Positions 1 to 17,868 of a stretch of DNA of 64,000 nt are shown here, one piece after another. The notes beneath the pieces are model-generated. The model made no database searches. It saw only the letters and a list, made by a program, of their open reading frames with translations, and was not told the origin of the DNA. How positions within the stretch are numbered: the stretch's first letter is position 1; every line of letters begins with the position of its first letter. The position numbers were made by a program, and so were the translations under genes. This DNA is from a virus: IMG/VR virus record IMGVR_UViG_3300037311_000293; one strand, 5' to 3'.

Positions 1-185
1 AGTACGACGCTTGGGCGCGGGACGGTCGCGTAGGGAACCGCCTGCCGCAAGAAGAGCAGTGCTTCCAAGCCGTCGGATACTGTGTGAATCCGATGCGGCA
101 TTCTCATGCGTGCCAGCACCCGGTGCATCGCTCGGACGTCCGGTAGATGGTCTTCGACGAGAAGTATCTGCGGTCTGTTCGGCAT
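1..185 (-). CDS. Rcp1-like response regulator receiver domain (partial, runs off window start)
   Basis: Manual translation from ATG at 185: MPNRPQILLVEDHLPDVRAMHRVLARMRMPHRIHTVSDGLEALLFLRQAVPYATVPRPSVV. It shows the ILLVED acidic pocket and the DGLEAL.FL....Y...PRP pattern of Rcp1-type receivers. The phospho-Asp lies beyond the window. Not in the ORF track. Confidence 0.85.
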   Translation of the reverse strand, partial: MPNRPQILLVEDHLPDVRAMHRVLARMRMPHRIHTVSDGLEALLFLRQAVPYATVPRPSVV

Positions 186-1254
186 GACGTCGTGCCACCA
201 CGAAGCGGACTGTAGCACCACCCCCAGGTGTGGACTCAATCCAAATCCGACCACGATGAATCTGAATGATCTTGTTGCAGATAGCGAGGCCGATACCAGT
301 CCCGGGCTTCGAAGTGTCGAGCCGCTTGAAGACACCGAAGACCTGTTGGGTATAGACGGGGTCGATACCGATGCCGTGATCGACGACGGAGAACAACCAG
401 CCCTCTTCTGTCTCTTCCCCGGTGAGGTGAACTACGGGAGCCACTCCGGGACGGGCGAACTTCACGGCGTTCGACAACAGATTGCTAAGGAGCAACCGCA
501 TCAAGCTCTCATCGGCCCATGTGATGGGCAACGGGTCCCTAGTGATCTTTGCTCCGGTCTCGCGTACACGAAACTCGTTGTCCAGCACGGCGTTATCGGC
601 GGTGGTATTCATGTCCACCCACTTCATGTCGACAGCACGCCCGACGCGACTGAGCTTCAGCAAATCACTGACGAGCTCACGACCACGCGCGGCGGCGTCA
701 ACGATGTAGCCGAGCTGCTCAAGGCCTTCCGGAGGCAAGAGGTTACCGAAGTCTTCCTTGATGAAGGCGGCCCAGTTGGCGATGGTACGAAGAGGCTCCT
801 GGAGATCATGTGACGCGGCGTATGCCAACGTCTCTGCCTCTTCCTTGGCACGCTTGTAATCATCGGCGGTGTGGGTGAGATCGATGACGTACTTTCCGAT
901 CTGGTTTTCGATGACCTTCTCGCTCGTGATGTCCTTGGCGCAGCAGTGGATGCTTCCGTCGGCATCTACATCAGGATGACATCGCCAACGCATCCAGACG
1001 ATCTTACCTGCCTTGGTGATGAAGCGGTTCTCGAAGACACCGGTACAGGAGGCACTGGCACAGGCGTCGAAAGACGCCACTACCTCATCCCGATCTGCCA
1101 TGTGCGACAGCTCAACAAGATCCCTAGAAGCCAACTCGCCCCTGGTGTAGCCGAGAAGATCACAGAATGCGTCGTTGGCTTCGACCACGACCCCTCGACG
1201 CAAAACACACATCGCATCGAAGGCGGCCTCGAAGAAACGCTTGTAGTACGGCAT
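1..1254 (-). CDS. PAS-domain sensor histidine kinase (no stop codon inside window)
   Basis: Manual translation from ATG at 1254. N-terminal PAS (EANDAFCDLLGYTRGEL...RFITKAGKIVWMRW...KDIT), H-box ASHDLQEPLR, N-box LLSNLLSNAVKF, G1 VVDHGIGID, F-box VFGVFKRL, G2 PGTGIGLAIC, then IWIESTPGGGATVRF. Missed by the ORF track because no stop occurs before base 1. Confidence 0.93.
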   Translation of the reverse strand, partial: MPYYKRFFEAAFDAMCVLRRGVVVEANDAFCDLLGYTRGELASRDLVELSHMADRDEVVASFDACASASCTGVFENRFITKAGKIVWMRWRCHPDVDADGSIHCCAKDITSEKVIENQIGKYVIDLTHTADDYKRAKEEAETLAYAASHDLQEPLRTIANWAAFIKEDFGNLLPPEGLEQLGYIVDAAARGRELVSDLLKLSRVGRAVDMKWVDMNTTADNAVLDNEFRVRETGAKITRDPLPITWADESLMRLLLSNLLSNAVKFARPGVAPVVHLTGEETEEGWLFSVVDHGIGIDPVYTQQVFGVFKRLDTSKPGTGIGLAICNKIIQIHRGRIWIESTPGGGATVRFVVARRHAEQTADTSRRRPSTGRPSDAPGAGTHENAASDSHSIRRLGSTALLAAGGSLRDRPAPKRRT

Positions 1255-1258
1255 GTGA

Positions 1259-2509
1259 TCACAAGTACGTTGGGAAGTCCATATTCCAGAGATCCCAGAC
1301 CTCTGTCCGGAGTGTCGCGTTGTGGGCAACGGGATACAGCGCCAGCCTTGAGATCGACGCATCTGCGAAGCTACTGAGCGACGTGAGGGCCGCCAACATC
1401 GCACTGCCGCCGACAGCCCGTGGGGTGTATGCCTGATCACTACCGATCTGGGTGCGTCCACGGAAGAGCCGACAGAGGTTGGCGCTCCCGTCGAGTACCC
1501 ACGTCAGTACCTGAGCATCAGCGAGCGACGCCCCAAACGTTCGCCAAGCCCCATCGAAAAGTGAAACATTGTCACCCTCCGCGATCGAGCTCAGCATGAA
1601 CCGCAGAGGCCCGGTCTCGACGTCGAGGATACAGGCATCACCTGTACCAGCGTTGTCGTAAAGGGCCACGTAGAGCGTCCAGTTCGTAGAGGCATTGACG
1701 AGCCCGGAGATCGCCATGCGCTGTTCGCTTGAAGCGAGGAAGTCAACCGTAGGGTACCCGTCGATGCCGCCGACAGCTAAGTAGAGTGGCTTGTTGAACG
1801 CTGCGGACTCTTCGGCATCAGTTCCTGCGGTTCCCTGGTCTTCCCAGATCTCCACATAGTCCAGATTCTCCACGGGATCACCAGGAGCCTCAAGGACTCC
1901 AATCGCAGCGTCAAATAGGATCAATGGGTCACCGAGGACATCATCCGAGGTCACTGCGATTCCGTTCGTCACGACCTCAGTAGCGCTGACAGCTTGCCCG
2001 AATGTGACACCACGAATCGCGCATGTGATCGTCGTTCCGGCGTCGGCGATCTGTGCCTGGTATGCCTGGTTCGTGGCACCTGCGATGTCGACACCATTTC
2101 TGCGCCACTGGTACCTGTACTCCTCGATCGGCAACTCTTGGCCCGCGCTATTGGTCGCCAGTACCCAGCCACCTTCGGCTGCGGTGAACGTGGTCCCGAC
2201 AACTGCGGGTTCGGCGTCACCCACAATGGAAGGCTCAATGATCCCGGGTGTTGGTGCTCCAGGTAGTTCGGTAGCAAACGTACCGGCGACACGAGAAGCC
2301 AGCGCCAACGCATCTGATCGACGGACAACTTGGACATCACCAAGAAGAGTAGCTGCACCCGAAATGGGATCCGGCAACGCCGGCATGCTTACGCGCGTAG
2401 AATCCGGATCATCCGTGACCCAGACAACGTAGCCGTAATCGACCGGGAACGGCGCATCTCCAATGAGCGTGGAGTACGAGATGTAGAGCTGTCGGTTGAG
2501 TACCGGCAT
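1259..2509 (-). CDS. virion/tail-associated protein with Ig-like and LamG/concanavalin-like regions
   Basis: YQWRRNGVDIAGATNQAY...DAGTTITC is an Ig-like signature; C-terminal W.DQG....A and RLALYP.AH....RTEV pattern resembles LamG-like domains; in an operon with tail-fibre-like genes. Confidence 0.6.
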   Translation of the reverse strand: MPVLNRQLYISYSTLIGDAPFPVDYGYVVWVTDDPDSTRVSMPALPDPISGAATLLGDVQVVRRSDALALASRVAGTFATELPGAPTPGIIEPSIVGDAEPAVVGTTFTAAEGGWVLATNSAGQELPIEEYRYQWRRNGVDIAGATNQAYQAQIADAGTTITCAIRGVTFGQAVSATEVVTNGIAVTSDDVLGDPLILFDAAIGVLEAPGDPVENLDYVEIWEDQGTAGTDAEESAAFNKPLYLAVGGIDGYPTVDFLASSEQRMAISGLVNASTNWTLYVALYDNAGTGDACILDVETGPLRFMLSSIAEGDNVSLFDGAWRTFGASLADAQVLTWVLDGSANLCRLFRGRTQIGSDQAYTPRAVGGSAMLAALTSLSSFADASISRLALYPVAHNATLRTEVWDLWNMDFPTYL

Positions 2510-2510
2510 C

Positions 2511-3704
2511 TCAGATCACCGAGTAGTTGGAGGTGTCGACACCGAACGTGCCGGGACCGTCGTACTGCGCTCCTGTGGGATCAGCACCGTTTGTCGTGAC
2601 CCATACATGCCAGCCGCCGGCGACGGTATCCCAAACACGGTTGCGCGTCTCTGAGCTCGGGGCTGGTGGTCCGTTGTCGGGAAGCGCGAGCTCGACACGG
2701 GCTTCTGCGACAGGCTCATCTGCAATGGGCCATCCACCTGTCCATGCAACAGGCCATCCTGCGGTGCCGTAGAACGCGTGGGCTCCGTAGTCCGTACCGG
2801 TGCCCGTAGTGACACCGTGGGGCCACGGAAAGAAGTAGTTGCCCCACCGGATGAAGCTACGTCCTTCGGTGGCGTTGTTGATTGTGTCGTTCGCCGCAGG
2901 CGTAGCCGTCGGGAAATAGGCGAAGGAGGTGCCAAGGCCTTTTCGGATTTCACGACCGCCAGTGTTCTCGCCGATGAACGCGGGCTGGATGTCGTACTGC
3001 CCGGAATACGGATTGGTCTGCACGCCCGTTGTGTACGGCGCGCCGTTTGTGATCTGAAACGCAATGGCTTCGATCTGTCCCGAAAGACCCAGCAGACCCG
3101 ATGCCGAGCTGGTCGCACGAAGGCAAATCCAAGGCTCGTAGTCCACGTTCCCGTTGTCGCCGTTTGCGACTGTACTCAGCGCAAACAGCCCTACTGCTGT
3201 CTGAACAGTGGTTCCGGCGATCAACTGGATGACGAAGTAGAACTCATAGACATCGCCGGTCTGGCCGCGCCCGACTTGAGCAGCGGCGACGTGGTACTCG
3301 TAGGATGCGAAGCTCGAAGGGATGAATGCCGTGTCATACGCACCCGACGTACCTACAAGCTGCACGCGCGTCAGAGATCCAGTAGGCGCTGTGGTGGCCG
3401 TTCCTCCTGAGAAGATGTCGCCGTACTGACCGAGATACCAACGCCACGACCGATTGGTCGTACCGCGCTGCATCGTGAAGTCACGGTTACCTGCGGGATC
3501 GCGCCAATGCTCCCAGGAGTCAGCGTTGCTCCATCGCGTAGCGTCGTTGCGTGTGGACGCCGACGTCGAAGACCCGTTGCTGGACCGGACAATCACCCAT
3601 CCCGCGGCCGCAAGACGATCACCGAACGCGATGATCGGGGCGATCTCCGAAGCCAGGGCCTCGTTGACGTCAAACCGCCAGTTGTCTGAGAGATGTAGCG
3701 TCAT
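2511..3704 (-). CDS. putative tail/virion protein (paralog of 3704-4624)
   Basis: 397-aa Gly/Thr/Trp-rich ORF in the structural operon; shares an N-terminal motif and GG.E.RKG with the neighbouring gene. Confidence 0.5.
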   Translation of the reverse strand: MTLHLSDNWRFDVNEALASEIAPIIAFGDRLAAAGWVIVRSSNGSSTSASTRNDATRWSNADSWEHWRDPAGNRDFTMQRGTTNRSWRWYLGQYGDIFSGGTATTAPTGSLTRVQLVGTSGAYDTAFIPSSFASYEYHVAAAQVGRGQTGDVYEFYFVIQLIAGTTVQTAVGLFALSTVANGDNGNVDYEPWICLRATSSASGLLGLSGQIEAIAFQITNGAPYTTGVQTNPYSGQYDIQPAFIGENTGGREIRKGLGTSFAYFPTATPAANDTINNATEGRSFIRWGNYFFPWPHGVTTGTGTDYGAHAFYGTAGWPVAWTGGWPIADEPVAEARVELALPDNGPPAPSSETRNRVWDTVAGGWHVWVTTNGADPTGAQYDGPGTFGVDTSNYSVI

Positions 3705-4624
3705 CAGAACCCGAAGCTCACGTTATGGGGCCACGGAATCGTCCAGACTCCAAGGTTGAGGCGACACTCCCCCCCGGTCATCGGAGACAGCACCGCGAGG
3801 TTCCCTCGGATCGCGGAGTCTCCGGTTACGTTGTCAAAGATGCCCTTGCGCTGCTCACGCCCGCCAGTCGTTTCGCCAACGAACAGCGGAGGCAGGTCAT
3901 CGAACAGCGTCAGGGGGTTCCGGCCGGTCCAGGTGCTGGGCTCAGAAGCCTGTAGTGTGGTCGTCTGTAGTTCCCCGGAGAGCCCAGCCTTGTACCAGCC
4001 ACGAAGGCCGCTCAGGGAGTTCTGCGACGATGCTGAAGCCCAGGGCTCGTTGTCGGGGTCGCCGACAACACCGTCTGCGGTGCTGGTGAGCGAATCCACG
4101 AACATGAAACCTTGCGGAGCTGAAGCTGAGTTCGTGGGTTGGATCAGAATCCAGAACGGATAGACATCACCGCTGACACCGCTGGCAACACCTGCGGCGC
4201 CGAAGTGGAACCTGAAGTTCGAGATCGTGGAGGTACCGAAGAAGTTGGACGCCGCCGCGCCTCCAGTACCGACAAGCTGTATGCGGCCCGCAGAGCTCGG
4301 AAGCACGGTGGCGCTGCCACCGGTCATCGGCTCTCCGGCCTTGCCCTGGTAGAACAACAAGTTCTGGGCCGACGACGGTCGCTGGAACGCGATGTCGCGA
4401 CCGGATGCGCCACCGGGATCACGGAGATGGACCCATGCGTTGCTGTTGTTCCACTGCGAAGCCGTGGGCACCACCGATGCCGTCACCGCGCTGCCATCGC
4501 TCGACTGTACCGCGGTCCATCCGGCGGCAAGGAAGACGTTGACCCAGGCGGCGTAGGCGTCGCCATGTGTGGCGTAGCCTTCGTTGACGTTGTAGTGCCA
4601 GTTGTTCGAAATGTGGATCGTCAC
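3704..4624 (-). CDS. putative tail/virion protein (paralog of 2511-3704)
   Basis: 306 aa; MTIHISNNWHYNVNE vs MTLHLSDNWRFDVNE in the neighbour; overlapping stop/start junctions. Confidence 0.5.
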   Translation of the reverse strand: MTIHISNNWHYNVNEGYATHGDAYAAWVNVFLAAGWTAVQSSDGSAVTASVVPTASQWNNSNAWVHLRDPGGASGRDIAFQRPSSAQNLLFYQGKAGEPMTGGSATVLPSSAGRIQLVGTGGAAASNFFGTSTISNFRFHFGAAGVASGVSGDVYPFWILIQPTNSASAPQGFMFVDSLTSTADGVVGDPDNEPWASASSQNSLSGLRGWYKAGLSGELQTTTLQASEPSTWTGRNPLTLFDDLPPLFVGETTGGREQRKGIFDNVTGDSAIRGNLAVLSPMTGGECRLNLGVWTIPWPHNVSFGF

Positions 4625-5868
4625 AGCGAGCCTCCAACGCGGATCCCGGCGTACAGGACATGAAGAAGATCACCGGGGCTACCGGATTCCAAGATGATGC
4701 GAACCTCGTACATCGAGACGTTGTCGAGAATCTCGTTGAGGTCCACTCCAGGAGTCGCAGACAGCGTCAGCGGCTGAATCGGGTTCACCGGAACCCCGTC
4801 ATCTGCGGCATCGATGTAGAGACGGCATCGCCGTACCGGGACGATCGGACTGCCCGGGGGACCGAGATCGTAGAGATCGATATACCCACTGGCGGTCGAC
4901 GAGAACATCGTGGCGAGTGTGCGGAACTCGTAGGTCAACGTGGCGTAGTCGTATTCATCGGGATCGAAAACGAATCCACCAAGCACGAAGGCTACATCCG
5001 GGGTATCGGCTGTGACATTCGTACCCGCGGCGAGCTCGTGTACGGCAGCGATGGGGTAGCCGGTCGGACTCTGGTTTTCGTAGCGGTTGTTGGCCGCCAC
5101 CCAAGTGAGTACCTGACCGTCGGTCGGCGCTGCGCTGTGGACGTCCCAGCCACGAATCCGAACCACCGAGCTCGCCGCAACGGTACCGGTGACGTCTCCG
5201 GCAATAGCAAGCGTTGCCGGGGCGTAGCGGTTGTTGACAGCATCCCAGGACAACACCTGATTCGCCGTAGGCGCCGTGGTGTGGACGGCGTAACCCCTGA
5301 TGCGCTCGACTACCGTCGTGCCCGAAGGCCCGGTGACGTCTCCGGCGAGCGTGACTGACGCAGATCCCGCGATGGACTCCACGGCCCCGACGAGCTCATA
5401 GACCCACTCGGCCCATGCGCGCCAGTTTTGCTCCGCAGAACCAAGACCCGCGCGATCGGCGTACAACGCGTTGTCTTCGGACTCGTCGGGATCGTTGCTG
5501 GCAAGAGTCGCCGTAGCCGGTGCTGTTTCCCCGAAGGTCGGAATCCGAAGACCCGTCAGAGGTGCACGCACACTGAACGGTCTTGTAGTCGTGGTGATCG
5601 TACCGTTGTCGTCAACGGTCAAGCGGACTCGGAAAGAACACGGCTCTGTGATCTGCCCACTGGGCCCCACGGTGACCACTGCGCCTGTAGATCCCGACAA
5701 TGCAGCCGTAGAGCCGACCTTGTCCAAGATCTCCCAGGTATACGTTACGCCCGGCCCCGTCGGCGCCGTGGCGGTCAACGTGATGATTTCCCCGGGTACG
5801 AGGTCATGCCTGGCTCGGCCGGCGACGCCGACTCCAGGGGTAGCTTGGTCGATCCGGAACTCAGCCAT
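4621..5868 (-). CDS. putative tail fibre protein
   Basis: Two internal repeats LAGDVTG....V.RIRG..VH..APT..QVL.W...NNRY, typical of tail-fibre shafts; beta-sandwich/PKD-like N-terminus (VTYTWEI, FRVRLTVDD). Confidence 0.6.
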   Translation of the reverse strand: MAEFRIDQATPGVGVAGRARHDLVPGEIITLTATAPTGPGVTYTWEILDKVGSTAALSGSTGAVVTVGPSGQITEPCSFRVRLTVDDNGTITTTTRPFSVRAPLTGLRIPTFGETAPATATLASNDPDESEDNALYADRAGLGSAEQNWRAWAEWVYELVGAVESIAGSASVTLAGDVTGPSGTTVVERIRGYAVHTTAPTANQVLSWDAVNNRYAPATLAIAGDVTGTVAASSVVRIRGWDVHSAAPTDGQVLTWVAANNRYENQSPTGYPIAAVHELAAGTNVTADTPDVAFVLGGFVFDPDEYDYATLTYEFRTLATMFSSTASGYIDLYDLGPPGSPIVPVRRCRLYIDAADDGVPVNPIQPLTLSATPGVDLNEILDNVSMYEVRIILESGSPGDLLHVLYAGIRVGGSL

Positions 5869-5874
5869 GTCGCG

Positions 5875-5880
5875 AGGATA
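5875..5880 (-). promoter_or_regulatory. -10-like hexamer TATCCT 6 nt before SD-less ATG at 5868 (candidate leaderless promoter)
   Basis: Coding strand reads gatgcTATCCTcgcgacATG, with an extended -10 TG and no SD. Confidence 0.45.
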
Positions 5881-5906
5881 GCATCGTCGACTCGCTTCCA
5901 GAAACT

Positions 5907-5914
5907 CCTATCAG
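5907..5914 (+). promoter_or_regulatory. recurrent motif CCTATCAG (putative phage promoter)
   Basis: Followed by GGAGG and ATG at 5930; one of more than 12 intergenic copies. Confidence 0.55.
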
Positions 5915-6107
5915 GACGTGGAGGAATACATGGACACAGTTCTAACGAAGCGACTCACAGCGCACTACCCGCACCCATGCGGTCCCGGCTGCCCGTGTGG
6001 ACGGCCATGGGAACGGCCGCAACGCGCTTCGTCAAGTACGACAAGCGAGGGAGCGTGACCGATCCTTATCGCGACTCAGATCACAACCGCTACTGCAAGG
6101 ACAACGA

Positions 6108-6320
6108 ATGAGTAATGAATCGTCCTCCGAACTGACACATGGAGTACGTCTAGATCTCGCTCTTGAGATCATCGCAGTTCGAGGCCCCGCAGACCATCCC
6201 GGCCCCGAGGGCTGGTACGCCGTGGAAGACGCCGGCCTCGGTATCGTCGCCTACTTTCTCAAAGAGACCGACGCGCTTCGCTATCGACTCGATCTCGCAA
6301 ACCGAATGGTGAATCCGTGA
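6108..6320 (+). CDS. hypothetical protein
   Basis: Starts MSNESSSEL; overlapping stop/start junctions in a plus-strand operon. Confidence 0.45.
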   Translation: MSNESSSELTHGVRLDLALEIIAVRGPADHPGPEGWYAVEDAGLGIVAYFLKETDALRYRLDLANRMVNP

Positions 6321-6556
6321 GCAACGAGGATGTCTTCAAGTCGATCCTAGTCGTGTTCCTCGTAGAAGCGATTGGACTGATCGCCTACGTACTCTTACGG
6401 CCCAACGACAAACCGCTCGATACCCAGACCGATGCTGTCTTCTGTCTCGAGCAGTGCCACGCCATCGGATGTGGTGCGTGGATCAACGCCCGCTACCCCA
6501 ACAGCAACGAGACAGGCTGTATCTGCGCCTGCGAAGGACCAGGAGATCCGGAATGA
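6317..6556 (+). CDS. small membrane protein with Cys-rich C-terminus
   Basis: N-terminal hydrophobic helix followed by C..C...C and C.C.C motifs. Confidence 0.5.
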   Translation: MSNEDVFKSILVVFLVEAIGLIAYVLLRPNDKPLDTQTDAVFCLEQCHAIGCGAWINARYPNSNETGCICACEGPGDPE

Positions 6557-6988
6557 ACTACTCCGACGAGATGGATCGGATCATGTCTATCGTGCTCTAC
6601 AGAGAAGACGAGGTGAAAGACTTGAAAGACGAAGAGGTGCCCCAGGGCTGCGTTTTCGTCCGCGGCCTCGCCCACAACTTCGGGTTCCATCCCGGGCGTC
6701 TACTCGACTCGGCGGAAGACGTCAGGAAGATCTTGGGTGCCGTGGTCACCGACGAGTTCATGGGGGGCCGAGGGTGGCTGGAGCTTCCTGAATCTCGTCG
6801 TCGGACGCAACGGCGAAATCTGGGGCAACCAGGTCGACGCCGAAGGTCTGATGTGCCTGGCGCTGGGTCTCGGGTGGGCCGAGATCCTGGTACCGCGCTC
6901 GATGTGGCAGATGATGCCCGGCGGCGTGCCTTACGTGCGCTTCAACTTCACCGGTGAGCCAAAGCTCACATCCGCCGAACAAGACTGA
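6553..6988 (+). pseudogene. hypothetical phage protein split by a frameshift in a G6 run (6762-6767)
   Basis: Frame 1 (MNYSDEMDRI...VVTDEFM) joins frame 2 (GAEGGWSFLNL...PGGVPY) if one G is removed; could be an assembly error. Confidence 0.55.
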
Positions 6989-7017
6989 TCACAGACTCAA
7001 GCAGAGATAGAACAGCA

Positions 7018-9072
7018 ATGAGCAACTTCAACGCATTCGCCCTCGCAGTCCACAACTCGTTCCAGAACATCGTCAAGTCCGGAGCCGCCCGCGCCGTTGT
7101 CGTCGACATCGAACCCGACGATCTCTGGCACAAGTACCTGGCCGCGTTCCCGGAAGGATCGAATCCGGTCTTCCGCGTCCGCACCGAGCACGACTGCGCG
7201 TGCTGCAAGCAGTTCATTCGACGAGCCGGCGTCGTGGTCGGTCTCCTCGGCGATAGCGTCCTGACGGTCTGGGACGAAGCCGCAAAGCAGGACGGTACCT
7301 ACGGCATCGTGGCGCGGGCTCTTCAGGCCGCCGTCAAGGACGCCTCCATCAAGGACACCTTCGTCGTCTCTCGCAACGAGACAGGCTTCGGAGCCAAGCA
7401 GTCGCGATCGCTTGACAAGGCCACTCAACGCGCCGTGACCTGGAATCATCTGTACACCGGGGAGATCCCCGTAGCGCTGCGCAGCGCTTCACCCGGCGAG
7501 CAGCGCGGCGACGCCCGGACTGCGGTTCAGGTCTTCACGCGTGGTCTCCTTGAGCTCAGCGAAGATGCTGTCTCCACCGTTCTCGGACTCATCGACAACA
7601 ACGCGTTGTACCGTGGTCAGGAGCATCGCCGTGCCGTCGTCGAGTTCCAGAAGATGCAGAAGGCATTCCTCGGGCTTGGCAGCCACCGGGATCGTCACTT
7701 CTTCGTCTGGAAGAACTACACCCATCCGGTCTCTCGTTTCCGCAACACCGTGATCGGAACATTGGTCCAGGATCTCTCCGAGGGCCAAGAGCTCGAACGA
7801 GCAGTCAGCAGCTTCGAAACCAAGGTGGCGCCGCAGAACTACAAGCGCACCACCGCGCTCATCACCCCCATGATGGCAAAGAAGGCGCTTGAGACCATCG
7901 AGACCCTCGGCCTTGAGCCCGCGCTTGAGCGACGTCTCGCCGTTCTCAGCGACGTCTCCGTCAACGACGTCCTGTGGGTCAGCAACGCCGCCAAGCCGCT
8001 CATGAAGGACGGTGTGGCCGGAATGCTGTCGTCGCTGGCCAAGACGGAATCGAAGACCAAGATCGCCGCTGAAGACATCAGCCTCGACGACTTCATGTCC
8101 CGCGTGCTGCCGGAAGTCACGGAGCTCGAGCTGTTCTTCAGCGGTGCCCACCTCGGCAACCTGATGGCGCTGACGGCCCCGGTTCATCCGGAACCCAAGC
8201 AGCTCTTCCGCTGGGACAACGACTTCGCTTGGTCCTACGCCGGCAACATCACGGACTCCATCGCTGAGCGCGTCCGCAAGGCCGGCGGCAAGGTCGATGG
8301 TGCCGTGATGCGGGTGTCGCTGTCGTGGTTCAACTACGACGATCTCGACCTCCACATCCACGAGCCCGAGCGCGGAGCACGAAGCGTCAACAGCCACATC
8401 TTCTACGGCAGCAAGATCGGGTGGACCGGAGGGCGGCTCGACGTCGACATGAACGTGGGACCGAACGGCAGTCGGCAAGCAGTCGAGAACGTCGTGTGGT
8501 CCTCGAAGCCGGCGGACGGCGACTACAAGGTCGTGGTCCACAACTTCACACACCGCGAGACTTCAGATCCTGGCTTCGTCATCGAGGTCGAGAACGCCGG
8601 CAAGCTCTTGCACTTCTCGTACAACAAGCAAGTCCGACAGAGCCAGTTCATCGAGGTCGCCGTCTTGACCGTGAAGGACGGCGTGATCACTGGTGTGAAG
8701 CCCGGAAACGGAATCACGGCCAGCAACATCTCCCAGGAGCGCTGGGGTCTCACCACAGAGCGCTACATCCCGGTCACCACGGTGATGCTGAGCCCCAACT
8801 ACTGGGGCACCAACGCAGTCGGCAACAAGCACGTGTTCTTCGTTCTCGAAGGCGCCCGCGCCGACGAGGAGTTGCGCGGCATCTACAACGAGTTCCTTCA
8901 CCCCCGCCTCGAGGCACACCGCAAGGTGTTCGAGGTCATCGGAGATCGCACCAAGTGCAAGACCAGCCCGGACCACATGGCCGGGCTGGGCTTCTCCAGC
9001 ACCAAGCACACCACCTTCTCGGTGCGTGCTCAGCAAGGCTCGCGCAAGCGCGTCTTCAACATCCATGTCTGA
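7018..9072 (+). CDS. large phage protein containing a YfaP/DUF2135-like region
   Basis: 684 aa with strong C/G3 codon bias; HDCACCK Cys motif; RVSLSWFNYDDLDLHIHEP...GGRLDVDMN...AVENVVW matches the DUF2135/YfaP pattern. Confidence 0.55.
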   Translation: MSNFNAFALAVHNSFQNIVKSGAARAVVVDIEPDDLWHKYLAAFPEGSNPVFRVRTEHDCACCKQFIRRAGVVVGLLGDSVLTVWDEAAKQDGTYGIVARALQAAVKDASIKDTFVVSRNETGFGAKQSRSLDKATQRAVTWNHLYTGEIPVALRSASPGEQRGDARTAVQVFTRGLLELSEDAVSTVLGLIDNNALYRGQEHRRAVVEFQKMQKAFLGLGSHRDRHFFVWKNYTHPVSRFRNTVIGTLVQDLSEGQELERAVSSFETKVAPQNYKRTTALITPMMAKKALETIETLGLEPALERRLAVLSDVSVNDVLWVSNAAKPLMKDGVAGMLSSLAKTESKTKIAAEDISLDDFMSRVLPEVTELELFFSGAHLGNLMALTAPVHPEPKQLFRWDNDFAWSYAGNITDSIAERVRKAGGKVDGAVMRVSLSWFNYDDLDLHIHEPERGARSVNSHIFYGSKIGWTGGRLDVDMNVGPNGSRQAVENVVWSSKPADGDYKVVVHNFTHRETSDPGFVIEVENAGKLLHFSYNKQVRQSQFIEVAVLTVKDGVITGVKPGNGITASNISQERWGLTTERYIPVTTVMLSPNYWGTNAVGNKHVFFVLEGARADEELRGIYNEFLHPRLEAHRKVFEVIGDRTKCKTSPDHMAGLGFSSTKHTTFSVRAQQGSRKRVFNIHV

Positions 9073-9084
9073 ACAGGAGAGAAC

Positions 9085-9495
9085 ATGAGCGACGACAGCA
9101 TCTTCCAGTACGCAACGCGCAACAAGCTCCGCTTCCCTTCCGGCCGCGGAGAGCTCACGGTCGAGCAGCTCTGGGACGTGCCGCTGCGTTCCAGCAACGA
9201 CTTCAACCTCGACGTGATCGCCAAGACCATCAACAAGGCCCTCAAGGAGGCCTCCGAGGAGAGCTTCGTCAACAGCACGCGCTCGCCGGCACAGACGCGT
9301 CTTGAGATCATGCTTCAGATCGCGAAGCACGTGATCATCACCAAGCTGGAAGAGGAGCGCCTGGCCGAGAAGCGCGCCGCGAACAAGAAGGAGCGTGAGA
9401 AGCTGCTCGAGATCTTGGCCGAGAAGCAGGAGGGCAAGCTCTCCAAGCTCAGCGAGACCGAGCTGCGCCGCCGCATCGAAGCGCTCGAGGTCTGA
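9085..9495 (+). CDS. coiled-coil phage protein partnering the 684-aa gene
   Basis: SD AGGAG; IFQYATRNKLRFPS.RG.LTVEQLWDVPL N-terminus; charged helical C-terminus. Confidence 0.6.
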   Translation: MSDDSIFQYATRNKLRFPSGRGELTVEQLWDVPLRSSNDFNLDVIAKTINKALKEASEESFVNSTRSPAQTRLEIMLQIAKHVIITKLEEERLAEKRAANKKEREKLLEILAEKQEGKLSKLSETELRRRIEALEV

Positions 9496-9509
9496 GGACA
9501 GAACGCAAG

Positions 9510-9545
9510 CAAAAGAAGAGGGGATCACTCCCCTCTTCTTCTTTG
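9510..9545. terminator. bidirectional rho-independent terminator
   Basis: AAGAAGAGGGGA-tcac-TCCCCTCTTCTT between convergent genes, with A/T tracts on both sides. Confidence 0.8.
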
Positions 9546-9546
9546 C

Positions 9547-9870
9547 TCAGATTCTGAAGTACACGACGCCAAACACGGGCTCCGAGACTTCCATTGCTTG
9601 CTTGCCGAAGAACGCGAGCTTTGTCTTCTCGATGTCCTCGTCCGTAAGCCCTTCGCCGTTGACGTTGGCCAAGCTGATCTGCACGGATTCCGAAGCACTA
9701 AGAAAGACGACGCGCAATGCATCCTTCGTGAACGACTGCGCGAAACCGCGTTCCGAGACGATGTACCTGACGCCCTCCGGACTCTGCCAACCCTTCGGTG
9801 CCCGCTTCGGCAACAACAACGCGAGGCGTTTGTAACGCGCCGACTCCTCTGCGGTGTACTTGCGCTTCAT
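9547..9870 (-). CDS. hypothetical protein
   Basis: 107-aa ORF; ATGA overlap with the GroES gene. Confidence 0.5.
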   Translation of the reverse strand: MKRKYTAEESARYKRLALLLPKRAPKGWQSPEGVRYIVSERGFAQSFTKDALRVVFLSASESVQISLANVNGEGLTDEDIEKTKLAFFGKQAMEVSEPVFGVVYFRI

Positions 9871-10241
9871 GCCAAGACTCGATCGATGTCTTCGGGATCG
9901 AAGACCACGATGACACTGGATTCCTTGATCTTGACGAGGTCGAAGCGGACGAAGAACTGACGGTTTGTCTCCTGCTCCTTGAGGAACCGGATGAACGCCA
10001 CCTTGTCTCCGACCTTGAGCCCGCCAATCGGCGGACGCGGGCGTGACTTCGTGTTGGCGAAGCCGTAGGCGACGACCGTGCCCGTGGCCAGGATGCCGGC
10101 GTCCCCTCGATCCCCAGCGGTGTCCGGAATGTGGATGCCGCCAGAGGTCGTTTCTCGGAGCTCATCCATCTTCACGAGGATGTCGTCTCCGAGGATCTTG
10201 AGAAGACGACCATCGGCCAACTTGTATTCGTTGTGGTTCAT
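9867..10241 (-). CDS. groES: GroES-like co-chaperonin
   Basis: Start revised to MNHNEY. LKILGDDILVK....ETTSGGIHIPDTA....ATGTVVAYG....LKVGDKVAF...IKESSVI matches the Cpn10 mobile-loop pattern. Confidence 0.8.
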   Translation of the reverse strand: MNHNEYKLADGRLLKILGDDILVKMDELRETTSGGIHIPDTAGDRGDAGILATGTVVAYGFANTKSRPRPPIGGLKVGDKVAFIRFLKEQETNRQFFVRFDLVKIKESSVIVVFDPEDIDRVLA

Positions 10242-10633
10242 TCGACTTTCGTGAGGCGAGAGGTTTCGATCCATTCCTTGTGGTCGCCGAAGTCGACGAG
10301 CACGTGGTCTTCGCCGTCGTGGTTGACGTCGACCACGCGTCCCTCGAGCTGGCTGGCGGTCTTTCCGTCGGCGACGACTCGAACGCGATCCTTGGGGAAG
10401 TAGGTATTGGCGTGCTTGAACATGGTGTTGCCTTGTGCAGTACGGTACGGGCCGTGTGATGGCGGACTGGATGCCCAGATCCACTTCTCTACATTATCAC
10501 ACCACGAACATCCAGGATCGCAGCGCTTTGTATTGAAGTCAGGGCCCGGAAGGGGATACAGGCACGCCAACCTATGGAGTAGATCGACGTGCCTGTACAA
10601 CAGGGCCCAGATCAGTACGTAGGCCAGCATCAC
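10238..10633 (-). CDS. hypothetical protein with C-terminal SH3/KOW-like region
   Basis: FPKDRVRVV....EGRVVDV....VLVDF; possible internal start at 10423. Confidence 0.4.
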   Translation of the reverse strand: MMLAYVLIWALLYRHVDLLHRLACLYPLPGPDFNTKRCDPGCSWCDNVEKWIWASSPPSHGPYRTAQGNTMFKHANTYFPKDRVRVVADGKTASQLEGRVVDVNHDGEDHVLVDFGDHKEWIETSRLTKVE

Positions 10634-11019
10634 TTGTCGTCGCCGACCTCGATCTCCATGATGTCGAGCTCCTTGACGCCGGGCGGAGCATCCATCGTGC
10701 CGACGTCGACACCCGTGACACCCGAAGGTACCTCGCCGAGCTCACCGCTGTGAGCCGCGAGGAACGCACGAACCCCCTGCTTGATCGTGGGATTCGCGAC
10801 ACGAAGCTGATTCTTCATGTCTTCGGCGTCGGCGAGGATGAACACGCCGGGCTTGCCGTCCGTGTTGTCCTTGCCGAACTGAAGCGCCAGGCACATCGAG
10901 CGGCGACCGTCGCTGTCGGTCCATGCCACTGCGAACAGCTTGGCCTCGGTCACACCCTCGACAGCGTTGATCTTCTTGCTGAACTCCGGCGCTGCGGTGG
11001 GTTGAATCACACGTCCCAT
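10630..11019 (-). CDS. hypothetical protein
   Basis: SD GGAGG before ATG; biased codon usage. Confidence 0.55.
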   Translation of the reverse strand: MGRVIQPTAAPEFSKKINAVEGVTEAKLFAVAWTDSDGRRSMCLALQFGKDNTDGKPGVFILADAEDMKNQLRVANPTIKQGVRAFLAAHSGELGEVPSGVTGVDVGTMDAPPGVKELDIMEIEVGDDK

Positions 11020-11028
11020 GTCGTCCTC

Positions 11029-11337
11029 CTAAACCAGAAGGTCCTTGTGGTCCTTCTCTCCTGACAAGATCTCAGAAACCGTCTGACCGCTCACCACCAT
11101 GGGAGCGCCATCACCGACGCGCATCTTGACCACGGAGGCCTTGTGCGCACGAATCATGTCGATGCAGAACTGTAGCAGACCCGAACGATCAAGTGGTGGA
11201 CTGCTACTCAGCAGCTTGAGGTTGCCGTCGCGTTCTTCGTAGGCCGCGACATCGACGGCCTCCACTGCGGCGAGTTCCCCAGCAGAGTCGCAGGCGTTGC
11301 CCAGCCTGTATTGAATCACCAATACAGTCATCGGCAT
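11029..11337 (-). CDS. hypothetical protein
   Basis: Co-directional ORF abutting its neighbours. Confidence 0.45.
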   Translation of the reverse strand: MPMTVLVIQYRLGNACDSAGELAAVEAVDVAAYEERDGNLKLLSSSPPLDRSGLLQFCIDMIRAHKASVVKMRVGDGAPMVVSGQTVSEILSGEKDHKDLLV

Positions 11338-11927
11338 CAGCCCTGCTGGAAACCGTCTTCATCGACGTCACCCACGACGTCCTGAAGCGTTCTCGCGGCC
11401 TGTGGCGCCGTCTGCGGTACCTCGGGATAGCCCATCTCGTCTGCGGACACCCGCCGAGGCGGAACCTGTCGGGCTCGCCGCTTCATGTCTTCCTTCTGGG
11501 CGTGCCGTAGCCGAAGAGCCTCGGTTTGCTTCGCCTTGATCTGCGCCTTTCGCGTCTCCTGCGCCGTGGGCTCGTGCTCTTGTTCCGGAGGCGTGAACGC
11601 GTCCTCCGGGAAGGAGGCGAAGGGAGAAGGGGGATCGGAGACAACACCCTCGTCTTCGTCTTCGAGATCGGGGAACGTCTCTACCACCTCGTCTTGTACT
11701 TCATCCCTGGATTCGATCCATCCAGCCGAGTGAACCATGCCAAGTGCGCCGCCCACGACTTGGAAGTCACCATGAACTGCCGAGGCGACGACAGCGGCGA
11801 CGTCTTCTTCGGCGCACTGCACCTCGAACTCTCGGTCAGCGATCCGGATGACCAAGCAGTTGTGCTGCTCACGGGTATCGGGATCCCATTCCTGGCGAAC
11901 GCGCACCAGGTCGACGACGATCTTCAT
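11337..11927 (-). CDS. hypothetical protein, acidic low-complexity centre
   Basis: 196 aa; ATGA/TGATG overlaps. Confidence 0.5.
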   Translation of the reverse strand: MKIVVDLVRVRQEWDPDTREQHNCLVIRIADREFEVQCAEEDVAAVVASAVHGDFQVVGGALGMVHSAGWIESRDEVQDEVVETFPDLEDEDEGVVSDPPSPFASFPEDAFTPPEQEHEPTAQETRKAQIKAKQTEALRLRHAQKEDMKRRARQVPPRRVSADEMGYPEVPQTAPQAARTLQDVVGDVDEDGFQQG

Positions 11928-12250
11928 GAGCGTCCTCCAAAGGGATTGGGAGGCGGGGGCGGTGTGCGGGGGTCATCCATCTTCTTCGCCAGGCGGATGA
12001 CGGCGAGCGCGCCAGAACCAATCTGGCCCGCGTACTTCAGGATCAAACACTTGTTCGGTGTATCCAGAACCAGACCGTTCTCGTCGAGGCCTTCTTCGGC
12101 GTTGAAGGCCATGCAGTCCGGACCGCAGACGCGATCACGGTCGTGCCAGCACAGCGCGCCGTTTCGTACGTCCTGTGTATCGGGACGCTCGATGTACGGG
12201 CTGTCCTTGAGATCTTCGACCAACGAGTCGAGCTCGTCATCACGATTCAT
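11924..12250 (-). CDS. hypothetical Cys-containing protein
   Basis: C....DRVCGPDCMAF motif; ATGA overlaps. Confidence 0.5.
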   Translation of the reverse strand: MNRDDELDSLVEDLKDSPYIERPDTQDVRNGALCWHDRDRVCGPDCMAFNAEEGLDENGLVLDTPNKCLILKYAGQIGSGALAVIRLAKKMDDPRTPPPPPNPFGGRS

Positions 12251-12777
12251 CGCTTCCTCTTCTTCTTTCCCGGCGAGCGAGTACGTACCGTAGGCGTGTT
12301 GTCGGGATCCACGAACACGGGATGGAGTGGTAGGTTGTTCTCCACGGCGAACATGCGGTGCTGTACTTCGGCTTCTTCGAAGGCAGCGGTAACCGCGGCT
12401 CCGCAGATCTTCTGCATCACGGCGTCACGAGCTGCTTGAGCCAGACGATTGTGACGACGCGCTTTCTCGACTGCCTCATCGTCGCCTTCCGGTACCTCGA
12501 CCATCTTGGGTAGCAGACCGATGAACTCGAGCGACTGCACCAGCGGCCCGGCACCATGAACGGCGAGCGTGCGGATCAGTACGGTACCGATACGCTCGAT
12601 ATCCCAGACCTGCTCTGAGGTCACGAACCCTACAGTATCGGCTAGCCGACCCTCCCACCCGCAGTTCGGGCACTGAGCTGTCGACGTCGATGACCCTTCG
12701 GCGTCTCTGAGCTCTGAACGGGTGATCTTCAAATCGATTCCACCACAATCCGGGCATGTGTGTCGTGCGTCAGCCAT
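12247..12777 (-). CDS. Zn-ribbon protein
   Basis: CPDCGG...CPNCGW; SD AGGAG. Confidence 0.55.
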   Translation of the reverse strand: MADARHTCPDCGGIDLKITRSELRDAEGSSTSTAQCPNCGWEGRLADTVGFVTSEQVWDIERIGTVLIRTLAVHGAGPLVQSLEFIGLLPKMVEVPEGDDEAVEKARRHNRLAQAARDAVMQKICGAAVTAAFEEAEVQHRMFAVENNLPLHPVFVDPDNTPTVRTRSPGKKKRKR

Positions 12778-12803
12778 GTGATCTCCTGAAAGGACTGGAG
12801 CAT

Positions 12804-12823
12804 ACCCGCCCCGAAGGGCGGGT
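12804..12823 (-). terminator. C(UUCG)G tetraloop hairpin
   Basis: ACCCGCCC-UUCG-GGGCGGGU on the minus strand between genes; U-tract weak. Confidence 0.55.
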
Positions 12824-12828
12824 CCTAG

Positions 12829-13230
12829 TCACTTCTTTCGCTTCTTCTTGGCGCGGTACTTCGCCTCTTCCTTGAAAGTGTCGTACAGATCTTGCTCCGC
12901 CGACGAGTCCATGCAGATCACCCCGAACATGTCAGGCACCGTCGATGACCGAAGATGCTTGCGGTCGATCTTGCATTGCAGCTCGTTGTGCAGGTACTGG
13001 TAATCCGAGGACAGCTCGAGGTAGGCAGCCCTGCGCGCCTTGAGAATGTCGACGAAATCCGAGTCCGCTTGCTTGGATGCCAGATGCCTGGCGATCTTGC
13101 GCTCCATCTGTTCAGCCGACTTGTCCATCGCCTTCGAAAGACGGAGGTACTTACGGCTGAGCTCTTGTATCGGCTTGATGGCTTCGGCGAGGTCACGAGC
13201 CACGCGCCGCGAGAGGTCGGGCATCTTCAT
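12829..13230 (-). CDS. hypothetical coiled-coil protein
   Basis: 133 aa, helical, basic tail. Confidence 0.5.
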   Translation of the reverse strand: MKMPDLSRRVARDLAEAIKPIQELSRKYLRLSKAMDKSAEQMERKIARHLASKQADSDFVDILKARRAAYLELSSDYQYLHNELQCKIDRKHLRSSTVPDMFGVICMDSSAEQDLYDTFKEEAKYRAKKKRKK

Positions 13231-13885
13231 CGGTAGACCCGCTTCAGGATCTTGACATCATGATCCGAAATCCATGGAGGGAGCTGCCCCATGGGCGTTG
13301 GTGTTTGAATCGGCCGCATGATGCTCTGTTCGTAGTCGTCGTGGGCAAGCCCGAGACAGTGACCGAGCTCGTGCAGGAGCACGTGACCCTCCATCTCGGT
13401 ATCGCCCGTGTTCGACGTCCGAATGGTGCAGTAAACGTCGAGGTCGCCGGGATCGTACTCCATCACCCAGTGACGTGCATCACCAGCGCTGTCCATCCAA
13501 TCTGGATCTCGGGCTTGTTCGGGGTGGTAGCAGATCATCGAGCCGTCGAGACACAGGCCGTCTTCCAAGTCATCGGCAAGGATGAGAAGCCCGAAGCCAA
13601 CACGGCTGTTCACGTGACCCACTGCGTCTTCGAGAATCGCCGTGTAGTCCATGGCGTAGACACGGTCCTCGAGGAAGATATCGATCTCGATCGGTGACTG
13701 ACGCAGCATGACGTCGAAGCATGACGTCGAAGCAATCCCCGGTGTAGTCGTAGCGATCGTCCGTCGTACGGCAGGCGCGCATCAGACCGGGCTCATCGTG
13801 GGTGAGGACCCCCGACAAGTACGAGTACGAGAGCAGTGACAGTCAGCGCCGCCACGATCCCGAGCATGATGTAGTTCCGCTTCAT
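13227..13885 (-). pseudogene. matrixin-like (metzincin) metallopeptidase with N-terminal signal/TM segment, interrupted by two frameshifts
   Basis: HELGHCLGLAH plus Met-turn SIMRP in ORF 13227-13709. The upstream part joins it if one base of the C5 run (13809-13813) and one copy of a 13-bp duplication (13705-13734) are removed. Confidence 0.6.
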
Positions 13886-14481
13886 GAACCTTCTCCCATG
13901 ACCCTCACGGGCCACGCATCGATCAGCAACTCCCTGTGCATACCATAGTTGCTGGTCCGCTCATAGACATCGATTTTGGACTCGTCGAGCTCCAAGATCT
14001 TTTCGTCCACTTGGCCCTTGCGGATCAGGTAGGCGAGCCAGGCCTGTGGGTTCTTCGGTATCCGAGGCGCGTTGATGGTGGTCTTGGCGACGCTGAACCT
14101 CTGCGGCCGGTGACCAATCCTGGGGTCCGGGCTGTTCACCACGAGAGCGGTGAGGCCGTCGATCAGCCCGGAGCCGAACAAGATCGTGGCTACATCATCG
14201 GGTCTCACCTGTACCACCACCGCGGTCTCGTCTCGGATGAAGAACAAGGAGCTTGAGCCGGGGTCGTATTCGAGACCGGCTCCTGCCTTGCCGACCAGAA
14301 GAGAGTGCATGTAGATCGTGTTGATCTCGAAGCGCATGATGCGCTTGCGTGACCGCGCACAGGTGATCTCCCAGCCACGTTCCCGAGTCTCACCCTTGAA
14401 CGCCTCGTGAAAGACCAGAATCTCGATGTCGGTCTGAATCTTGGTCTTGATCTTGATACCATCGCGTCGTAGCTGCTTCAC
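13882..14481 (-). CDS. hypothetical protein
   Basis: GTG start at 14481 after SD GAGGAG. Confidence 0.5.
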   Translation of the reverse strand: MKQLRRDGIKIKTKIQTDIEILVFHEAFKGETRERGWEITCARSRKRIMRFEINTIYMHSLLVGKAGAGLEYDPGSSSLFFIRDETAVVVQVRPDDVATILFGSGLIDGLTALVVNSPDPRIGHRPQRFSVAKTTINAPRIPKNPQAWLAYLIRKGQVDEKILELDESKIDVYERTSNYGMHRELLIDAWPVRVMGEGS

Positions 14482-14485
14482 TGGT

Positions 14486-15160
14486 CTACTCCTCGTGCTT
14501 GATGCGCCGTACACCGGCCATCTGGAAAAGCGCTTCCTCAAGCTCAGCGATTCTGTCGTGAAGAGCCTGCACAGCACCGAGATGCTCGATCTCGGAGAGG
14601 AGCTGGCCGATGGCCCAGTCCTCGGTGCCCTCCATGAGAGACTCCTCTGCGGTACGGGTCCGGTACGTCCTGGCGATCTCCTGAATCGTCTCCGGAGACG
14701 GCCGAGGCGGCAGGGTCGGCGGGCCGCCGTCCCCGGGAAGCCATCGCTTGTTCCACGGTCTGAACTTCAGGATCCACTCAGGCGACGGAAATGCGCCGGT
14801 GAAGTGGTAGCCTCGATCGTCGATGTACAGCACCGACGGTGGCTTCTCGGTAGGCCACTTGATCTTGAAGTACTCGCGCTGTGCCGCTTCCCAGGCATCG
14901 ACAGGCTCGAAGCCCGCGGCGAGCATGAACTTCTTGAGATGACTGCGCATCCATTCCTTCATCGCCTGGATACCTCCTGGCGCCGAGGAACGGCTTGAGT
15001 GGATGTGGAGCACGAGCTCGGGATGACTGACGACCTCGACAACCCAGGCCATCGCGCCGGGAACAGGACCGTCGTGGATCTCCACCGCAGTCGTCCACGG
15101 AGAGTCGTAGGCGTGAAGAACACCATCGAAGTCGCAGCACACGTTGTATTTCTTGCTCAT
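14486..15160 (-). CDS. HAD-superfamily phosphatase-like protein
   Basis: Motif I CCDFDGVL, motif II HSSR, K in EKP and YIDDR motif IV. Confidence 0.7.
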   Translation of the reverse strand: MSKKYNVCCDFDGVLHAYDSPWTTAVEIHDGPVPGAMAWVVEVVSHPELVLHIHSSRSSAPGGIQAMKEWMRSHLKKFMLAAGFEPVDAWEAAQREYFKIKWPTEKPPSVLYIDDRGYHFTGAFPSPEWILKFRPWNKRWLPGDGGPPTLPPRPSPETIQEIARTYRTRTAEESLMEGTEDWAIGQLLSEIEHLGAVQALHDRIAELEEALFQMAGVRRIKHEE

Positions 15161-16131: not shown

Positions 16132-16427
16132 CTTGCACCCACACTTTCTCCTGAGCCGTTCTGTGGTAGCCCGACAGCACCAAGGCGATCAGCGGCATGA
16201 GCTCGCCGCGCCGATTCAGAGCGCTGAGTGCGTCGGCATAGAAGACCGGACGCACTTGCCGCTTCTCCACGATCTGGATCATCTCAGATCTGACATAGCC
16301 TTTCGCGCACAACGCCGTCAGGGCAACGTGGGCGAAGTAACGCTCGAGCTCCTTCATCGCCGCCGCCGTCGGAATACGCCACAGGGCCAGAGCACGAACG
16401 CGATCATGGTGTAGAGATACGTCGTCT

Positions 16428-16850
16428 TCACTTGAACCTCTTGTACATGTTGACGCTTCCAGCGATCTCGGCGGTGAGAGACTCACACCCGCAGTCGTCT
16501 TCGCAGACAAATCCAAGACTGCGAAGTAGAGGGATCATATGGATGTTGACCACCTCGGCGTGTACTTCGATCCCGACCTCTTCGGCCTCGTCTACCACGG
16601 CTTCGCAGAGTGCTCTCGCAACGCCTTGTCTACGAAACCTTGAATCGACCACAACAGAGAGGGTGATGCAGAGGCTGTCGGCATTGACAGCGACCGCCCC
16701 TATGACATCCCTATCGCCGTCAACCGCTAGATATCGGATCTCTTGATTGCGGTAGAGGTAGAGACCGGCTTCGTTGAAGAGATCGTAGCCCTCGTCGACA
16801 TCAACGTCATCGTCATCGGCCCCGACGATCTCGTACTCCACTTCGGACAT
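16428..16850 (-). CDS. GNAT-family acetyltransferase
   Basis: Acetyl-CoA motif VVDSRFRRQGVARAL; LRSLGF. Confidence 0.75.
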   Translation of the reverse strand: MSEVEYEIVGADDDDVDVDEGYDLFNEAGLYLYRNQEIRYLAVDGDRDVIGAVAVNADSLCITLSVVVDSRFRRQGVARALCEAVVDEAEEVGIEVHAEVVNIHMIPLLRSLGFVCEDDCGCESLTAEIAGSVNMYKRFK

Positions 16851-16868
16851 GAATAGTCTCCTCGAGCC

Positions 16869-16876: not shown

Positions 16877-16894
16877 CAAAAGAGCAGAAGGACT

Positions 16895-17865: not shown

Positions 17866-17868
17866 GGT

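Follow-up and report, generated by a model that had tools for sequence, protein, structure and literature searches.

The stretch of DNA considered here (the window) comprises 64,000 nucleotides (nt) of virus record IMGVR_UViG_3300037311_000293 and represents the reverse strand of positions 81517 to 145516 of a single 177,453-bp contig (G000:C1). Its first positions form part of a cassette which encodes a sensor histidine kinase (HK), two response regulator proteins (RR1 and RR2), and two further proteins designated X4 and X5. We propose, with a probability of roughly 0.6, that this cassette specifies a self-contained, phage-owned two-component signaling circuit. Observed directly, and drawn upon in this reading, are the domain makeup of the encoded proteins, the integrity of their catalytic residues, the setting of the cassette in a phage genome, and the conservation of its genes under purifying selection. 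Two-component systems are the main sensory device of bacteria, and there is hardly any record of them functioning within phage genomes. In a survey of 224 jumbo phages, the only mention is of a divergent receiver domain which is in no case associated with kinases (PMC7824862), and full-text literature searches retrieved no account of a pathway whose kinase and regulator are both phage encoded.

Domain content of the kinase and its two receivers

HK initiates at an ATG at window position 1254 on the minus strand and is composed of a PAS sensor domain followed by HisKA and HATPase_c domains (Table 1), the Pfam matches to all three of which exceed their gathering scores. The H-box reads YAASHDLQEPL (overlapping the motif ASHDLQEPLR), the codon for His149 being located at window positions 808 to 810. 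In an alignment of 22 kinases, residues H149, N258/N262, D292-G294-G296, and G318-T-G-I-G-L323 were invariant, and HK possesses the defining features of a HisKA-type sensor kinase, namely, a HisKA domain with the phospho-acceptor His and a HATPase_c domain with N, G1, and G2 boxes. A previous reading of the window (here termed the original prediction) had described two minus-strand frames, corresponding to a PAS-HisKA-HATPase_c kinase and the start of a receiver, as an intact two-component system. Both frames were confirmed by Pfam and every catalytic residue is present, with the correction that the kinase frame does not reach a stop codon inside the window.

The region ahead of the H-box encompasses just ~130 residues, in which only PAS-family models were matched (residues 4 to 110), with no Pfam match to GAF or PHY at an E value of ≤0.01. 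Residues D13, C16, N27, R77, and W87 of the PAS domain are invariant across the kinase clade, and the LOV-type NCRFL motif is absent from it. The cytoplasmic location previously assigned to HK is borne out by its hydropathy profile, in which no hydrophobic or transmembrane segment was detected (maximum Kyte-Doolittle 19-residue mean of 0.99). The best solved relatives of the HK core are, apart from one unnamed kinase (8f71), bacteriophytochromes (9ys3/8uph, 1e-29; 8sgk; 8avv), and homologues are labeled “sensor kinase Cph1” or “bacteriophytochrome” in their sources; no NCBIfam equivalog was reached. Identity as a phytochrome was considered and rejected, as HK harbors one PAS domain and no GAF/PHY photosensory core. 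Its transmitter is assigned to the phytochrome-associated subtype, and of the Cph1-Rcp1-type module which had been predicted, the subtype of transmitter and receiver is upheld, while the phytochrome identity is not. The single remaining GHKL ATPase match in the genome is located in a 640-amino-acid (aa) open reading frame (ORF) elsewhere.

The frame of RR1 begins at window position 185 (MPNRPQILLVEDH...) and continues beyond the left end of the window, where the phosphoacceptor Asp on which the original prediction depended was found to be present (D64), as were the associated Thr and Lys. Residues E11, D12, D64, T94, and K116 are intact, and the E-D pair, D64, T/S, and K are retained in 7/7 loci. 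RR1 contains a Response_reg domain only and conforms to the Rcp1/RcpA-type single-domain response regulators, its best solved relatives being RcpA (1k68, 1e-31), Rcp1 (1i3c, 3e-27), RcpB, and a Deinococcus phytochrome regulator. The receiver of RR2 possesses residues E10, D11, D57, S85, and K107, with E10, D57, and K107 retained in 40/40 family members. The genome encodes no receivers other than RR1 and RR2. The expected Rcp1-type receiver is present, and the locus specifies two receiver proteins rather than one.

For the last ~150 residues of RR2, no match was obtained in Pfam, PHROGs, or NCBIfam, in which only the receiver part is matched; no described effector family was thus identified as an output domain. 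A word-based search with this C terminus retrieved two near-identical proteins only, and a profile of the domain yielded 46 matches among 1.84 billion representative proteins, nearly all of which are 255 to 290 aa in length and carry the domain at the same position. The putative output domain, therefore, appears to be found almost only in this cassette. A first AlphaFold2 (AF2) model of RR2, generated from a 7-sequence alignment, assigned the C terminus a predicted local distance difference test score (pLDDT) of 40 to 65, and a model based on a 40-sequence alignment (mean pLDDT of 88) comprises the receiver, a long helix (residues 113 to 145), a linker, and five more helices. The domain is acidic (median isoelectric point of 5.3), which argues against DNA binding. 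A histidine phosphotransfer-like domain was also considered for this region and rejected: His165 is invariant in 7 close sequences but replaced in many of the 40, and a phosphotransfer role is unlikely because this residue is not retained across the family. Elsewhere in the genome, a weak Sigma70_r2-like match (E value of 0.006, below the cutoff) was observed at G000:C1 168086 to 168244, outside the window, in a 392-aa open frame which possibly encodes a phage sigma-like factor of potential relevance to RR2 output.

X4, which is encoded directly downstream of RR2, contains a conserved N-terminal motif (..ARGFAALKVLLDER..) and a single C-terminal hydrophobic helix (residues 110 to 128; Kyte-Doolittle 19-residue mean of 2.5) and is, therefore, predicted to be tail anchored. 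No known family was matched by X4; its gene is always located 3′ of RR2, distant cassettes included, and is homologous in 8 loci. For X5, an Atlas search brought up nothing informative (scores of ≤0.80 and template modeling scores of ≤0.31). It is conserved over its full length in four relatives, and its 889-aa homologue in locus L003 is conserved across only the first ~170 aa; three further conserved genes follow X5 in six close loci.

In each of the seven close loci, as well as in L019, the HK frame remains open far beyond the ATPase domain and stops 191 to 254 nt inside RR1, the overlap amounting to 191 nt in G000:C1 (positions 145332 to 145522) and to 206 to 254 nt in the six relatives. 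The shared bases encode, in different frames, an HK C-terminal tail of ~66 aa and the start of RR1. Across the clade, the kinase ORFs enter RR1 by 190 to 250 nt, and a tail of 55 to 100 residues, rich in Arg, Pro, Ser, and Gly and with a recurring ..ALLA.GG.LRDRP.. stretch, is present in 22/22 clade kinases. No HK-frame stop was observed across the first 63 codons of RR1 in the seven loci, versus 21 stops in about 560 codons of the rest of RR1. As 36% of 60-codon windows genome-wide are stop-free in this frame, a stop-free overlap is unremarkable in one genome; in at least six lineages whose synonymous sites are saturated, its probability is ~0.002 or less. Synonymous-codon conservation of RR1 (0.465 inside the overlap versus 0.479 outside) provided no indication of dual-coding constraint, and it is only the openness of the frame which appears unusual, not the sequence of the tail. 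The extension of HK over the first ~60 to 85 codons of RR1 might provide additional control or represent a tail with a function of its own. In PAS-less cassettes, the overlap is 26 nt (L018) or absent (60-kb contig).

Fusion of HK and RR1 by frameshifting was rejected, as RR1 possesses its own ATG in 8/8 loci, among which no common slippery site was seen; in L019, a stop codon in the RR1 frame three codons upstream of the RR1 ATG likewise argues against it. Because the extended HK ORF covers the start of RR1, the latter gene was skipped by gene callers in every public relative with the overlap (L002, L003, L011 to L014, and L019), and the ~190-nt “gap” between HK and RR2 in public gene tables is a receiver gene of 138 to 146 aa. 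A receiver gene hidden under an overlapping kinase ORF thus escaped automated gene calling, a point of relevance to annotation.

Phage context, conservation, and selection

The 177,453-bp contig constitutes the virus record, with a CheckV completeness of 100%. It contains PHROG matches to TerL (2e-48), a major head protein (6e-9), and a tail sheath (3e-17), in addition to a DNA polymerase and a UvsX-like recombinase, and the presence of terminase, major capsid, and tail sheath on one molecule places the virus among the tailed phages (Caudoviricetes). The cassette occupies positions 144.3 to 146.9 kb of this contig, with HK at 144263 to 145522. It has the same guanine-plus-cytosine content as the rest of the genome, and a further 31 kb of phage genes, among them those for a deoxynucleoside monophosphate kinase, a nucleoside triphosphate pyrophosphohydrolase, and a tail fiber protein, lies to the right of the kinase.

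Relatives were obtained from protein collections, and loci were fetched for six members of the tight kinase group and for three distant RR2-domain matches. A search of 5.8 billion proteins retrieved a tight group of 21 kinases of 412 to 457 aa with 47 to 87% identity to HK, beyond which identity falls to ≤39% (ordinary bacterial kinases). No close relatives were detected when IMG/VR was scanned, by single protein and by alignment, with HK, RR2, and the RR2 C terminus, and a megablast comparison of window positions 1 to 20000 with 50,697 phage records produced zero DNA matches. The order HK-RR1-RR2-X4-X5 is retained in contigs of 186, 170, 84, 79, 61, and 34 kb, whose kinases share 47 to 61% identity with HK. 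More distant cassettes, composed of a kinase, a receiver, RR2, and a small protein, are present in contigs of 196, 60, and 37 kb among phage-like neighbors, and the small proteins of these three are homologous to X4 and share its C-terminal helix. In all, the HK-RR1-RR2-X4 order was identified in at least 8 other large metagenomic contigs of up to 196 kb.

Mean proportions of nonsynonymous differences (pN) of 0.31 to 0.34 versus 0.66 to 0.70 for synonymous differences (pS) were obtained for HK, RR1, and RR2, with synonymous sites near saturation, and the ratio of nonsynonymous to synonymous substitution rates of RR1 in the closest pair was 0.16; the cassette genes are under purifying selection. 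Among 598 cellular kinase matches from 185,579 species genomes, distributed over many phyla, the best attained ~36% identity over the full length. In a phylogenetic tree, the 22 phage kinases formed one supported group (Shimodaira-Hasegawa-like support of 99 to 100), with the L019 kinase beside it. Conservation, selection, low cellular identity, and tree grouping together indicate that the cassette has resided in this phage lineage for a long time and under selection, rather than being a recent capture.

These data also bear on the notion that the cassette is a passenger or an artifact: host sequence at the border of a prophage, a product of chimeric assembly, or a gene acquired recently and now in decay. 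Such a notion draws some credence from the public phage collection, in which the majority of kinase-like matches sit on fragmentary or contaminated records. The cassette, however, is embedded in a virus record rated complete, at a distance of 31 kb from the end of the contig, and the flanks, in which the original prediction had sought signs of a host chromosome, consist of phage genes whose order is kept in other phage contigs. Its gene order, moreover, recurs in at least 8 independent assemblies from different samples, and purifying selection, a base composition equal to that of the genome, and the lack of a close cellular homologue are at odds with recent capture and decay. This explanation is already contradicted by the data and is considered extremely improbable.

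Inference of the host did not yield a name, as the genome encodes one tRNA-Val, its cultured relatives are too distant, and the cellular homologues of the kinase are spread over many phyla; the myxobacterial host which had been suggested is without support. The tRNA-Val gene, the only tRNA gene of the genome, has the anticodon TAC and is located at window positions 21835 to 21909 on the minus strand (G000:C1 123608 to 123682).

Proposed signaling circuit and its main rival

We infer a signal, phosphotransfer partners, and an output for the proposed phage-owned circuit. HK, being soluble and equipped with a single PAS domain, would sense a cue from inside the cell, for which redox conditions, the energy state, and a small ligand are possibilities, and would autophosphorylate on His149, from which the phosphoryl group would be transferred to both phage receivers, RR1 and RR2. 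RR2 is likely to represent the output arm, probably acting through protein-protein contact and not DNA binding, with possible partners in X4, the putatively tail-anchored coiled-coil protein, or in the transcription machinery of the phage. RR1, in turn, is likely to function as a phosphate sink or modulator in a branched pathway. More tentatively, a lineage of large phages may long have kept its own sensory phosphorelay, by which the state of the cell is read so as to adjust a phage decision; candidate decisions would be the timing of lysis at the membrane via X4 or the expression of flanking host-recognition genes.

The main rival to the self-contained circuit is host takeover, whereby HK would phosphorylate Rcp1-type regulators of the host, or RR1 would drain phosphate from host kinases, and the host would thereby be reprogrammed. 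The transmitter and RR1 belong to a subtype which is widespread in many bacterial phyla, making cross-recognition conceivable, and RR1 is without an output domain. Conversely, the kinase gene is followed directly by two receiver genes of the phage itself and all three covary in a conserved order, the closest cellular kinases share ~36% identity or less over the full length with no donor or host phylum standing out, and no host partner can be named. Host takeover is, on balance, regarded as unlikely, and the feeding of phosphoryl groups into host signaling, as originally envisaged, is less parsimonious given that the phage possesses two cognate-looking receivers of its own.

Certain observations, nonetheless, weigh against a self-contained phage circuit. 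The nearest cultured phage, Salmonella phage Arash, shares just 24 to 27% identity in TerL and capsid. The two most divergent cassettes, those of L018 and Microcoleus phage My-WqHQDG, encode kinases which fall outside the phage kinase clade, and kinase and receivers may have been reassorted. In structure searches with RR2, receiver matches fill both hit lists, such that residues beyond ~139 were barely probed. Finally, cross talk with host regulators is conceivable.

Upstream genes and comparison with known systems

The start codon of HK is located 4 nt past the stop codon of the upstream gene U4 (TGA-TCAC-ATG), and the four upstream ORFs, U1 to U4, abut or overlap by 1 to 4 nt. The original prediction had placed HK at the end of an abutting chain of tail genes and conjectured its expression with the late genes; the 4-nt spacing and the chain from position 5868 were confirmed, while a tail identity of the genes is suggested by weak PHROG matches and by the combination of a conserved N terminus with a variable C terminus. 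U4 matches a virion structural protein (4e-7) and a tail protein (2e-4), both over residues ~100 to 180 only, with no Pfam or NCBIfam match and no homologue in the six related loci, and is possibly a virion or fiber-like protein. U2 and U3, for which no family match was obtained, have similar N termini (MT[IL]H[IL]S[DN]NW...) and look like paralogues. U2 to U4 are lineage specific, with just the last ~45 residues of U3 being matched in relatives. The N-terminal ~220 aa of U1 are conserved (50 to 57% identity by tblastn in 5/6 relatives) and its C terminus is variable; 58 homologues of 231 to 727 aa share mainly the N terminus, and a weak match to a tail fiber connector was obtained (3.5e-4). 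Such a pattern is as expected of a receptor-binding or fiber protein, yet is not specific to one. Overall, U1 to U4, for which putative tail fiber and receptor-binding assignments derive from short, weak PHROG matches of U1 and U4 (E values of 4e-7 to 3.5e-4), fit a host-recognition block without proving one. The sheath gene is located ~64 kb from the cassette.

The sequence TGCTAT(G/C)CT precedes the start codon of U1 at a spacing of exactly 6 nt in 6/6 aligned loci (five of them from related phages). An extended −10-like element (TG.TA...T) at this distance from an ATG was found at only three sites in the genome (U1 and G000:C1 84126 and 161934), each of which precedes a long ORF (415, 718, and 393 aa, respectively). 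The element resembles an extended −10 box and suggests leaderless transcripts which would begin on the U1 start codon or immediately beside it; U1 is marked as the likely start of the transcription unit. It also hints, weakly, at transcription by the host polymerase rather than a late phage polymerase. A scan of the operon for promoters and terminators detected nothing above the shuffled background. We infer that the cassette is cotranscribed with U1 to U4 upstream and with X4 and X5 downstream. The strongest phage-family match near the cassette, divergent from the U1 operon, is a 684-aa protein encoded at window positions 7018 to 9072 on the plus strand, which matches phrog_1735 (unknown function) over its full length (2e-222).

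This arrangement raises the prospect that the cassette tunes the expression or assembly of the neighboring host-recognition genes (U1 to U4 and X5) in accordance with the state of the host. The conserved N termini and variable C termini of U1 and, in L003, of X5, the lineage specificity of U2 to U4, and the tight abutment of genes, between which promoter and terminator signals do not rise above background, are in keeping with such a role. Set against this, the tail fiber matches are weak, with no Pfam or NCBIfam matches; the neighbors differ in L003, in which the cassette follows small nonstructural genes, and in L019, whose upstream neighbors are likewise different; and the RR2 output domain is acidic, unlike a DNA-binding domain. 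A dedicated regulator of neighboring genes is, therefore, deemed improbable.

Table 1. Features of the cassette and of its upstream genes
Feature	Size or residues	Window positions	G000:C1 positions	Strand (window)	Basis or remark
HK	419 aa	1–1254 (ORF end 6 nt past window start)	144263–145522	−	Pfam; 22-member alignment
PAS sensor domain of HK	residues 4–110	925–1245		−	Pfam PAS_3 1.2e-13, PAS 5.6e-13, PAS_9 7.7e-10
HisKA dimerization and phospho-acceptor domain of HK	residues 142–204	643–831		−	Pfam 1.2e-6; 28.9 bits versus cutoff of 26.9
HATPase_c catalytic domain of HK	residues 248–353	196–513	145004–145321	−	Pfam 7.9e-24; 85.4 bits
RR1	144 aa (first 61 codons in window)	1–185	145332–145766	−	Pfam Response_reg 5.9e-18
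RR2	261 aa	outside window	145763–146548		Response_reg; ATGA overlap with RR1 stop
X4	133 aa	outside window	146545–146946 (L001 7546–7947)		directly after RR2; coiled coil and transmembrane helix
X5	555 aa	outside window			next after X4; no family matches
U4	416 aa	1259–2509		−	directly upstream of HK; possible Ig-like stretch
U3	397 aa	2511–3704		−	function unknown
U2	306 aa	3704–4624		−	function unknown
U1	415 aa	4621–5868		−	first gene of chain
Promoter-like element TGCTATCCT-N6-ATG		5866–5883		−	conserved upstream of U1

While the chemistry specified by the cassette is that of classical two-component systems, its phage owner, its output domain, and its gene layout depart from the classical pattern, with the RR2 output domain and X4 being seen essentially nowhere outside the cassette. 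If correct, the reading of a self-contained phage circuit would provide a defined and testable case of a virus sensing the interior of its host by phosphotransfer, a new response regulator output domain, and a virus-owned counterpart of bacterial two-component signaling rather than a borrowed host gene.

A comparable arrangement is present in Microcoleus phage My-WqHQDG, a metagenome-derived cyanophage (OR578706, positions 88856 to 91414; L015), in which a 545-aa HisKA/HATPase kinase, annotated as hypothetical, precedes a receiver of 138 aa and a further receiver-like ORF of 171 aa. In contrast to the cassette described here, that kinase is only 30% identical, falls outside the clade, and is encoded beside genes for primase and helicase, and nothing resembling X4 was seen in the locus; the preprint on this phage is silent on its kinase and receivers. 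RR2, as modeled, is arranged like EutV-type (ANTAR) and similar regulators, whose receiver is followed by a long helix and then by a small output domain of helical structure. EutV was the top Foldseek match, in which only the receiver superposes (218 aligned columns; root mean square deviation of 15.7 Å), and RR2 has no Pfam ANTAR match, such that the likeness is one of layout only.

Branched or phosphate-sink pathways, in which one kinase serves two receivers, are exemplified by CheA with CheY1 and CheY2 in Sinorhizobium. The phage cassette similarly presents two receiver genes after a single kinase gene, with one of the two encoding a bare receiver domain; unlike the Sinorhizobium system, it is devoid of chemotaxis components, and transfer to both receivers is here a proposal. 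The closest parallels are with the Cph1-Rcp1 and bacteriophytochrome pairs, with which the cassette shares the SHDLQEPLR H-box, a related kinase core, and a stand-alone receiver encoded directly after the kinase. The phage kinase differs from these in being virus encoded and in possessing one PAS domain without a GAF/PHY core or chromophore site, and to the common scheme the phage cassette adds RR2 with its putatively novel output domain, a partner predicted to be membrane anchored, and the overlap between kinase and receiver genes.

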